A stretch of DNA of 64,000 nucleotides, taken from assembly GCA_902385225.1 (NCBI GenBank), contig CABMEU010000024.1, forward strand, positions 5,606 to 69,605. Direction: 5' to 3'. Under the pieces are notes generated by a model. That model saw only the letters and a list, made by a program, of their open reading frames with translations, was not told where the DNA came from and ran no database searches. The stretch comes from an uncultured archaeon (lineage in GTDB: Archaea; Iainarchaeota; Iainarchaeia; Iainarchaeales; JAAZKV01). Numbering within the stretch: the stretch's first letter is position 1; every line of letters starts with the position of its first letter. A program made the position numbers and the translations under genes. Below, one piece after another: positions 23,381-25,329 of the stretch.

Positions 23381-23752
23381 TCATTTCCCTCTTTTTTTTC
23401 TTGAAGCCCTTGCATCACTTAATTCTGCCGCCTTTTTCTTTCTCGCAAGTATAATTTTTCTCGCCTTCGCAATTTCTTTCAGGGCTTGAACAAGTCTCCT
23501 GGAATCACCTTTCATGGGTTTCCTTGGTTCTTTTAGGAGCCATCCAATAGATGAATATTCCATAGGCTTTTTTAGTCCCAGCGCTTTGAGAACTTCCGGC
23601 TTTGCCAAAAGGTTTCTGTTCAATTTATCCCTAACCATTCTATCTTCCCAGCCAAGACCGCTTTTGCCGGAGAGAGGAATTATTCTTTGTTTTGGCGGAG
23701 TTCTTCCCGGAGAATACCACCAAACATCCATTCGTCTTCCAGCTCTAACCAT
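23381..23752 (-). CDS. hypothetical basic 123-aa protein inserted between porA and porB
   Basis: Intact ORF 4 nt after the porA stop, with GTGAT SD overlapping the porA end. Arg/Lys-rich: MVRAGRRMDVWWYSPGR...KKKAAELSDARASRKKRGK. No POR subunit resembles it. Confidence 0.55.
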   Translation of the reverse strand: MVRAGRRMDVWWYSPGRTPPKQRIIPLSGKSGLGWEDRMVRDKLNRNLLAKPEVLKALGLKKPMEYSSIGWLLKEPRKPMKGDSRRLVQALKEIAKARKIILARKKKAAELSDARASRKKRGK

Positions 23753-23756
23753 AATA

Positions 23757-24902
23757 TCACTTCAGCCAGTACCCTTTCTTCCCCCTAATTATTGCTTCAA
23801 ACGCGTCGTGGAGTTTTGCCTTGCTAATATCTCTTCCGCCAAGTCCGGCAACGAATTCTTCAACAATAACTTTTTGTCCGTTTAGCGCGCTTTTCACATC
23901 GTTGCTTAGCGCTCCGCCAAATCCAATGGAGGCGTGTCTGTCAATTACTCCAAGTATTTTTATTTTTTTTACCGCATTCTTTAGCTGTTCTTTTGGGAAA
24001 GGTCTCATTGATTTTATTCTTATAATTCCGGCTTTTTTCTTTTTCTTTGTAAGTTCCGCAACTACTTCTCGCGCGGTGCCTGTTGTTCCGCCCACAGTAA
24101 TCAACGCGTATTCTGCGTCTTTCATTTCAATTAATTCAATTAGCCCGTTTCCATATTCTCTTCCGAATTTCTTCGCGAATTCTTTGTGCACTTGCTCAAT
24201 CACTTTTTCAGCTTCGCTCATTGCTATTTCTTCCGCTTCTTTGAATTCAAAGTAAGTATTTGGGAACGCGATTGCCCCGATTGTGACTGGTTTTTTTGGG
24301 TCAAGCATTACGCTTGGTTTATACTCGGGTAGAAACGCATCAACTTTTTGTGCGTCCTCTATCTGCACTGGCTCATATACGTGGCTTAGGGAGAACCCGT
24401 CAATGCAAATCATTACTGGGAGTGAAACTTTTTCAGTCTCAGCAATTTTAAACGCCATTATTGTTGTATCGAATGCTTCCTGCGCGGTTTCGCAGTAGAG
24501 CTGTATCCACCCTTGGTCTCTCTCGCTCATTGCGTCAGAGTGATCGTTCCAGATATTCAGCGGTCCTGAGAGTGCGCGGTTTGCTACTGCCATCACTGCG
24601 GGAAATCTTGATGCGGAGATTATTGGAAGTATTTCGTGCATTAGTGCTAATCCCTGCGAGGCGGTTGCGGTAAATGAGCGTAAGCCCGTAGCGTATATTC
24701 CAAATAAAGCGCTTATTGCGCTGTGTTCGCTTTCAACATAAATTATTTCAGCGTTTAATTCGCCGTTGTTCACAAATTCTGAGAGTCTTTCAGGAACAAG
24801 CGTGCTTGGGGTAATCGGGTACATTGGTAAAACTTTTGGTTTGCACAGCTTTACTGCCTGCGCAATCGCATCCGCTCCCGAAATTACTTTTATTTCTGCC
24901 AT
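23757..24902 (-). CDS. porA: pyruvate:ferredoxin oxidoreductase alpha subunit
   Basis: MAEIKVISGADAIAQAVKLCKPKVLPMYPITPST is a typical PorA N-terminus. Length is about 381 aa. Confidence 0.9.
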   Translation of the reverse strand: MAEIKVISGADAIAQAVKLCKPKVLPMYPITPSTLVPERLSEFVNNGELNAEIIYVESEHSAISALFGIYATGLRSFTATASQGLALMHEILPIISASRFPAVMAVANRALSGPLNIWNDHSDAMSERDQGWIQLYCETAQEAFDTTIMAFKIAETEKVSLPVMICIDGFSLSHVYEPVQIEDAQKVDAFLPEYKPSVMLDPKKPVTIGAIAFPNTYFEFKEAEEIAMSEAEKVIEQVHKEFAKKFGREYGNGLIELIEMKDAEYALITVGGTTGTAREVVAELTKKKKKAGIIRIKSMRPFPKEQLKNAVKKIKILGVIDRHASIGFGGALSNDVKSALNGQKVIVEEFVAGLGGRDISKAKLHDAFEAIIRGKKGYWLK

Positions 24903-24915
24903 AATAATCAATTCC

Positions 24916-25329
24916 TTAATCAATTTGTCTTACAACCGGCTCCTTAAGATTGACTGTAAATCTTCCCATTGGTCTCTCTCCCTGCTCTCCAACAAGCTTT
25001 ATTATTTGAAACATTATTTTCCCAGCATCAGTCCCTGAGCGGATTACCTCATATTGGTATCTTCCTTCAGAATCCCTTGCATTGACTATTTGTTTTCCAT
25101 CTTTCAATTGCTGAATTAATCCTTCCACAATACCTCTGTGCATTGGCGGCCTCCATTTGAATTGTCCTTTGAACCTAAATGCTGATTGCTGTGCATGACT
25201 ATTATTGGACTGAGTTGAGTTCTCAGTTCGGGCAAGTGAATGCTGTCTAAGCCTCTCTGCGTGTTCCCTGCGTGCAGCTGCCTCGCGAAATTCCTTTGCA
25301 GACTTTACCCCAAATGCTTTTACTGCCAT
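24916..25329 (-). CDS. hypothetical 137-aa protein inserted between porD and porA
   Basis: Intact ORF filling the porD-porA gap (22 nt and 13 nt spacers). No recognised domain. Confidence 0.5.
   Translation of the reverse strand: MAVKAFGVKSAKEFREAAARREHAERLRQHSLARTENSTQSNNSHAQQSAFRFKGQFKWRPPMHRGIVEGLIQQLKDGKQIVNARDSEGRYQYEVIRSGTDAGKIMFQIIKLVGEQGERPMGRFTVNLKEPVVRQID

Follow-up and report, generated by a model that had tools for sequence, protein, structure and literature searches.

Two lineage-specific small genes, candidate passengers, at the porD-porA and porA-porB junctions of an archaeal pyruvate:ferredoxin oxidoreductase operon

A stretch of 64,000 nucleotides from an uncultured archaeon (contig CABMEU010000024.1, positions 5,606 to 69,605, assembly GCA_902385225.1), referred to here as the window, carries a pyruvate:ferredoxin oxidoreductase (POR) operon in which two small genes lie between the structural genes. 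Open reading frame (ORF) listing in combination with Pfam and NCBIfam models gave the minus-strand gene order porG, porD, ORF137, porA, ORF123, porB. On balance, we lean towards regarding ORF137 and ORF123 as lineage-specific passenger genes and not as core POR subunits. Both occupy intercistronic junctions with a fast turnover of genes in an otherwise canonical and strongly expressed porGDAB operon, and their expression would most likely depend on read-through from the one por promoter. Within the family, small genes are gained and lost quickly at the porD-porA and porA-porB junctions. Roughly a quarter to a third of the species have an insert there, and as a rule the ORF differs from one tip lineage to the next, with no relationship between them. 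The linkage of ORF123 to the por genes would then result from inheritance or from recombination, the flanking porA and porB sequences being highly conserved.

The window belongs to a 1.05-Mb assembly of 42 contigs with a completeness of 87%. Homologous proteins are labelled by NCBI as 'Candidatus Diapherotrites archaeon' (DPANN), and the genomes of the family comprise about 1 Mb.

Gene turnover at the por junctions

The comparison drew on por loci from 40 related genomes and contigs; counts for the family refer to 32 species genomes, or to 31 in the case of the porD-porA junction. The nearest relative, genome G021, encodes PorA and PorB proteins that are 90% and 93% identical, respectively, to those of the window. 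Its porD-porA and porA-porB spacers measure 58 and 56 nt, and neither insert was found anywhere in its genome. Close relatives with nearly identical POR proteins lack the inserts, and an obligate subunit role is therefore not supported. The two genomes are syntenic over about 15 kb at approximately 80% nucleotide identity; in this region we observed only three gene-sized differences, two of which are the por inserts. At the third site, 993 nt of the window (20851-21844) face 588 unalignable nt in the relative (L050 12761-13349), and this region holds a gene for a 290-aa RlmN/Cfr-like radical-SAM protein (20847-21719).

Within the family, the porD-porA junction exceeds 150 nt in 7 of 31 genomes and the porA-porB junction in 11 of 32, the medians of the compact junctions being 40 and 24 nt, respectively. 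In G011, the porGDAB operon is interrupted by two unrelated genes. The other occupants include two unrelated membrane proteins of 178-179 aa, a Cys-rich lipoprotein-like protein of 189 aa, a lipoprotein-like protein of 127 aa, a HIT-like protein and several unrelated small basic proteins; in the outgroup G026, an HD-domain gene is located between porD and porA. Pairwise and profile comparisons of the occupants revealed links only within the ORF123 family and within one pair of proteins from G016 and G017. When mapped on a PorA tree, almost every insert was restricted to one tip and missing from the sister of that tip. The ORF123 family occurs in three separate clades, which lie in an unresolved part of the tree. 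In other families of the order, the junctions range from -10 to +133 nt, with one exception.

Further observations concern the packing of these operons. In the outgroup families (L026-L029, L031, L033), the por genes overlap or are less than 25 nt apart at most junctions. In the family of the window, even 'empty' junctions measure 20-60 nt, which points to a lineage-wide loosening of operon packing. In G016, porA is split over two frames near residue 121 (L030 1152-2280), reflecting either a frameshift, and thus a possible pseudogene, or an assembly error. The 180-nt porD-porA spacer of G007 (L021 ~1318-1500) contains a masked run of N, and its content is unreadable.

We also considered whether the por operon is a unique insertion hot spot. 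This was not shown, as nearby junctions vary too: at other junctions in the same 20-kb neighbourhoods, gene-size insertions or deletions were present in 7-44% of the comparable relatives, although the samples were small. Thus, the fluidity is genome-wide.

Sequence and coding status of ORF123 and ORF137

Initial searches with ORF123 as a single query gave no match. A family profile was then built from the same-junction ORFs of relatives that have the R-I-P-L-S-G motif. A 118-aa protein of G047, a genome of another genus of the same family, matched ORF123 with a phmmer E value of 3.5e-16, and the profile matched the proteins P0003, P0005 (the protein of G008), P0007 and P0008 (both metagenome proteins). 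The members of the family are basic and cysteine-free, comprise 107-123 aa, and share the motifs R-I-P-L/F-S-G and L-x-R-N...K-x-E-V as well as a basic C-terminal helix; their alignment contains 13 invariant columns. Five of the genes have readable neighbours (window, G047, G008 and the contigs L056 and L059), and each of them is located between porA and porB. The family has no match in Pfam, NCBIfam, PDB, PHROGs or PADLOC, and no paralog was found in the window genome. We conclude that ORF123 defines, as judged by sequence and by position, a new small-protein family.

An order-wide search of 196 genomes detected it only in G000, G008 and G047, in addition to one weak candidate in G124, which belongs to another family of the order. 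The latter is a basic protein of 121 aa (L063/L093, G124:C35:5369-5734, minus strand; profile E 7.8e-6). Its gene lies at a contig end, and the next gene is a 211-aa ORF and not porB; the protein may be a distant family member encoded outside the por operon. We tried to merge the junction proteins of G016 (90 aa), G017 (153 aa), G047 (85 aa) and G049 (90 aa) into the ORF123 family, and rejected this at an hhalign probability of about 1%. The link between the G016 protein and ORF123 is limited to the first 15 residues (MVRAGRR..W.YP), and the proteins of G016 and G017 form a separate pair.

Among the three closer members of the ORF123 family, dN/dS amounts to 0.21-0.26, compared with 0.02-0.05 for porB in the same genomes. 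Thus, the ORF123 gene is real and constrained: it is under moderate purifying selection and evolves about ten times faster than PorB. The single-sequence AlphaFold2 (AF2) model of ORF123 has a low mean confidence score (pLDDT 56); in it, most of the N-terminal half is disordered, whereas the C-terminal part forms a long, basic helix. Judged from its composition, ORF123 would most likely bind a polyanion, which may be a nucleic acid or else an acidic protein, for example ferredoxin.

ORF123-type genes are accompanied by additional ORFs in some relatives. In the G008 clade, a secreted, Cys-rich ORF of 162-165 aa is located between porA and the ORF123-type gene (L006 2622-3119, L056 3500-3988, L059 842-1339). 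It has an N-terminal transmembrane or signal segment, and its dN/dS of 0.21-0.31 makes it a second conserved passenger at the same junction. In G047, the ORF123-type gene is followed by a basic ORF of 85 aa.

ORF137, by contrast with the ORF123 family, is unique to one genome. We found no homolog in the 40 relatives, nor a second copy in its own genome. A word-indexed search of 5.8 billion protein clusters returned only the protein itself, as did an exhaustive phmmer (HMMER) search of 1.84 billion representative proteins. The only additional hits were two giant surface proteins, which we rejected as homologs: what they share with ORF137 is a hairpin motif of 30 residues (LKDGK..TD..G.Y.FE.L..G) of the kind seen in CarboxypepD_reg/SdrD_B repeats, which we regard as a short motif resemblance and not as homology. 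No match was obtained in IMG/VR, PHROGs or PADLOC, and neither ORF137 nor ORF123 hit a Pfam or NCBIfam family at E<=1 beyond noise. Nor is ORF137 related to ORF123 (BLASTP E 0.47). A single-sequence AF2 model of ORF137 (pLDDT 63) predicts a charged N-terminal helix (residues 11-48) followed by a beta-alpha-beta-beta-alpha-beta domain (residues 53-125). Foldseek searches against the PDB retrieved only generic ferredoxin-like folds with E>0.02, so that no function follows from them. Within the passenger interpretation, ORF137, with its small alpha/beta domain, was most likely either acquired recently by this species alone or born as a new gene.

The origin of the ORF137 start region deserves a brief comment. 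The 45 nt around the start codon resemble the start region of porA, with a local alignment score of 30 that lies in the top 0.24-0.36% in a comparison with 827 gene starts. This is suggestive only, but the region may be a duplicated copy of the translation-initiation region of porA. A corresponding candidate repeat between the starts of ORF123 and porB was discarded; the two have only the Shine-Dalgarno (SD) sequence and its spacing in common, which is not significant.

Both ORF137 and ORF123 are real protein genes. They fill their gaps in the direction of the operon. At the composition of its coding strand, a frame of 123 codons would stay open by chance with a probability of 2.7e-4, and one of 137 codons with a probability of 1.0e-4. 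Of the six possible frames, the annotated one has the highest codon-usage log-odds in each case (0.188 for ORF123 and 0.145 for ORF137), and both values agree with those of long ORFs elsewhere in the genome (mean 0.223, standard deviation 0.081). The GC content of both genes is 0.43, the same as that of the por genes. The opposite view, that one or both ORFs are untranslated and represent non-coding spacer or a decaying remnant still open by chance, is very improbable. It could draw on the missing homologs and missing 5-mer SD sequence of ORF137, on the only moderately confident model of this protein, and on G004, which has a 205-nt porD-porA spacer without an ORF. It is, however, opposed by the gap-filling open frames on the operon strand (P ~1e-4 each), by the codon usage, which is best in frame, and by the purifying selection in the ORF123 family. 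In addition, no Rfam family matches the region, and even the single-sequence model predicts a compact domain for ORF137.

Operon layout and the PorB intein

The features of the locus are listed in Table 1. Each of the four por genes has a nearly full-length match to its archaeal model (PorC, PorD, PorA or PorB), the match of PorD starting behind an N-terminal extension of ~38 aa. The listed porA and porB ORFs, which begin at the first possible start codon (TTG 24923 and GTG 23418, respectively), are N-terminally over-extended, because the family models align from internal ATGs.

Table 1. Features of the por operon and of the PorB intein in related genomes
Feature	Position	Strand	Evidence
TATA-like box TTTATAAA, ~100 nt upstream of the porG ATG	26381..26388	-	scan of 22301-26500
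porG, POR gamma subunit, 177 aa, first operon gene	25756..26289	-	PF01558 E 7.6e-37; TIGR02175 PorC_KorC 170.8 bits
porD, POR delta subunit, two 4Fe-4S clusters, ~38-aa Lys/Cys-rich N-terminal extension	25352..25726	-	NF040684 PorD_Arch 108.7 bits, residues 40-122
ORF137, orphan protein without cysteine	24916..25329	-	ORF listing, codon usage, searches, model
porA, POR alpha subunit, 381 aa (start ATG 24902)	23757..24902	-	NF040682 PorA_Arch 499 bits; PF01855, PF17147
SD sequence GTGAT of ORF123; overlaps the porA stop codon (TGA) and precedes the ATG by 3 nt	23756..23760	-	
ORF123, small, very basic, cysteine-free protein, new porA-porB junction family	23381..23752	-	
porB, POR beta subunit, 302 aa (start ATG 23322), allele without intein	22414..23322	-	NF008819 PorB (PRK11865) 401 bits
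Full PorB intein, example from a relative	L078:5878-7887	-	
Intein-bearing relatives	L010, L011, L014, L016, L018, L023, L066, L068, L069, L071, L032		

The initial annotation of this DNA had placed the two inserts at the same coordinates within a canonical porG-porD-porA-porB order, and ORF listing and family models agree with it. It had also described tight packing with spacers of 4-58 nt. We measured 22 nt from the porD stop to ORF137, 13 nt from the ORF137 stop to the porA ATG, 4 nt from the porA stop to the ORF123 ATG, and 58 nt from the ORF123 stop to the porB ATG. The GTGAT motif that it had assigned to ORF123 was likewise seen to overlap the porA stop. GTGAT is the commonest SD 5-mer of the genome (623 long ORFs); ORF137 has no 5-mer SD sequence.

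The only TATA-like box on the minus strand between 22301 and 26500 is the one upstream of porG; the operon itself contains no such box. A T5 run is present between genes at a single place, immediately before the porB ATG. A scan for sigma-70 promoters and terminators was uninformative for an archaeon. With all genes on the same strand, 4-58 nt apart and preceded by one TATA-like box, co-transcription is an economical inference: the six genes are likely transcribed together from a single por promoter, in agreement with what the initial annotation had predicted. Both inserts are single-copy in the assembly, and other matches in whole-genome DNA searches were noise of 14-32 nt.

The N-terminal extension of PorD (residues 1-38, positions 25613-25726) is Lys-rich and carries a C-x-C-x7-C-x-C motif (ECSCKGSKECTC) ahead of the two-cluster ferredoxin domain. 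This tail differs between species, and most relatives align from residue 28-39 onwards.

A further element is found in the por operon of relatives. A LAGLIDADG intein of about 367 aa (Pfam domains Intein_splicing and LAGLIDADG_3) interrupts PorB in 10 of the 32 family genomes and in one outgroup. It is inserted in the TPP-binding motif (NEAYMN|C...VVHN|TGIQRS). The PorB protein of the window has the empty site YMN|TGIQ, located at approximately 22926/22927 (residues N132|T133). Our literature search found no paper that describes a PorB intein. Judged by its presence in 10 of 32 relatives, the por locus is open to selfish DNA.

Competing explanations and comparison with known systems

The initial annotation had suggested that the inserts associate stoichiometrically with POR. 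As a general property, this is not supported, since G021 lacks both genes, ORF137 has no homologs, and the junctions of sister species contain unrelated ORFs. For ORF123, some support persists in the fixed porA-porB position in three clades and in the purifying selection. In this sense, ORF123 and possibly ORF137 might be lineage-specific accessory subunits or partners of POR, with ORF123 acting as a basic adaptor that would dock the acidic ferredoxin or stabilise the heterotetramer. We consider this unlikely, even though each of the five family genes whose neighbours are readable is found between porA and porB, across three clades and two genera, the family is under purifying selection (dN/dS 0.21-0.26), and ORF123 is tightly coupled, its SD sequence overlapping the porA stop. 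A precedent exists in the epsilon subunit of five-subunit pyruvate:ferredoxin oxidoreductases (PFORs), which matches none of the seven PFOR domains and whose role is unknown (PMC13768988). An accessory role is, however, difficult to reconcile with a family found in 3 of 196 genomes, whose weak fourth candidate in G124 does not precede porB. The sisters of the window and of G047 lack the gene despite highly similar POR subunits, PorA and PorB have the same lengths with or without it, and its evolution is roughly ten times faster than that of PorB. ORF137, moreover, is confined to one genome. The statement of the initial annotation that neither insert resembles a POR, VOR or KOR subunit or PorE/PorF is borne out: there is no Pfam or NCBIfam match, and both proteins contain zero cysteines. 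The canonical domains of the alpha, beta, gamma and delta subunits (POR_N/PFOR_II, TPP_enzyme_C, POR gamma, Fer4 dicluster) are absent from both, while the four flanking genes match them strongly. The Foldseek comparison that it had proposed yielded generic ferredoxin-like folds only. In the comparison of close relatives, which it had proposed as well, both inserts are missing from G021, and the dN/dS of the ORF123 family is 0.21-0.26.

About equally doubtful is the idea of selfish or mobile cassettes that bring the host no benefit and pass horizontally between related archaea, with the conserved por flanks as sites of homologous recombination, in the manner of intron-less or intein homing. 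The PorB intein attests to DNA exchange at this locus, the ORF123 family is patchily distributed over the PorA tree, and many different occupants are found at the same junctions. Yet neither insert contains a nuclease, integrase or transposase motif (Pfam, NCBIfam, PHROGs, PADLOC) or a homing endonuclease or intein domain (LAGLIDADG, GIY-YIG, HNH, Hint; Pfam and Foldseek). No match to IMG/VR or PHROGs connects them with phages, and none to PADLOC with defence systems. One copy each, no repeats elsewhere in the genome and no transposase domain in Pfam argue against insertion sequences or MITEs. Their composition is fully host-like, and no mechanism that would drive their spread was identified.

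Several points weigh against the passenger interpretation, which we nevertheless prefer. That three clades from two genera have the ORF123 family at the porA-porB junction exceeds what is expected of a random passenger and could indicate a functional tie to POR, and purifying selection means that the ORF123 protein does something. ORF137 is represented by a single sequence. Co-transcription and translation of the inserts are deduced from the sequence, and the proposed polyanion binding relies on composition and a low-confidence model. Furthermore, gain is indistinguishable from loss, the three ORF123-bearing clades falling in the unresolved part of the PorA tree. For ORF123, three scenarios fit the data: vertical inheritance with many losses, recombination through the flanks, and a real tie to POR. 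A bolder proposal, to which we give little credence, is that the ORF123 family constitutes a lineage-specific fifth component of the four-subunit DPANN POR, a cysteine-free and highly basic adaptor that is translated in step with PorA and PorB and would tether ferredoxin or nucleate assembly. Alternatively or additionally, the por flanks might serve as a recombination landing pad that spreads cassettes and the PorB intein among episymbiotic archaea.

If ORF123 proteins interact with POR, they would add a new accessory component to a central enzyme of anaerobes, in a group of archaea that has hardly been studied, and would be a second example, after epsilon, of small proteins modulating PFORs. 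If the inserts are passengers, the locus offers a natural series of 32 species with one operon, at least 12 junction occupants and an intein. Such a series would be suited to study how reduced, promoter-poor genomes gain, express and discard small genes by lodging them in an operon with strong expression. In both cases, ORF137 and ORF123 should not be annotated as POR subunits.

Among known systems, the inserts resemble the orphan small genes of DPANN genomes in being short, lineage-restricted and fast-evolving, with no assigned family and the annotation 'hypothetical protein'. They differ in their location inside a conserved catabolic operon and in that one family holds the same junction in three clades. 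With inteins and free-standing homing-endonuclease genes they have in common a patchy presence at a precise site between conserved flanks, in an operon that hosts an intein in relatives, but neither ORF possesses an endonuclease or Hint domain. The polyferredoxins PorE and PorF of Methanococcus maripaludis are Cys-rich, bind several [4Fe-4S] clusters and are encoded after the structural genes. ORF137 and ORF123, in contrast, lie between structural genes, contain no cysteine and give no Fer4 match, and the CxxCxxCxxxCP motifs of PorE/PorF were found in neither of them. According to a 2026 review, the methanogen polyferredoxin PorE may itself not be a true subunit (PMC13768988).

A close parallel is epsilon, a subunit of the five-subunit PFOR and OGOR (2-oxoglutarate:ferredoxin oxidoreductase) of Aquificales (Hydrogenobacter thermophilus, Aquifex aeolicus), likewise a small extra protein from a por cluster. 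Epsilon, however, co-purifies with the enzyme, and its gene is located at the 5' end of the cluster in the order epsilon-delta-porA-porB-gamma (named porD-porE-porA-porB-porC in the review). The inserts occupy the porD-porA and porA-porB junctions of a porG-D-A-B operon, are missing from most close relatives, and match no Pfam, NCBIfam or PDB profile. They differ from epsilon in position and distribution. What the inserts share with the known extra PFOR components is only that they are extra genes of a por cluster.

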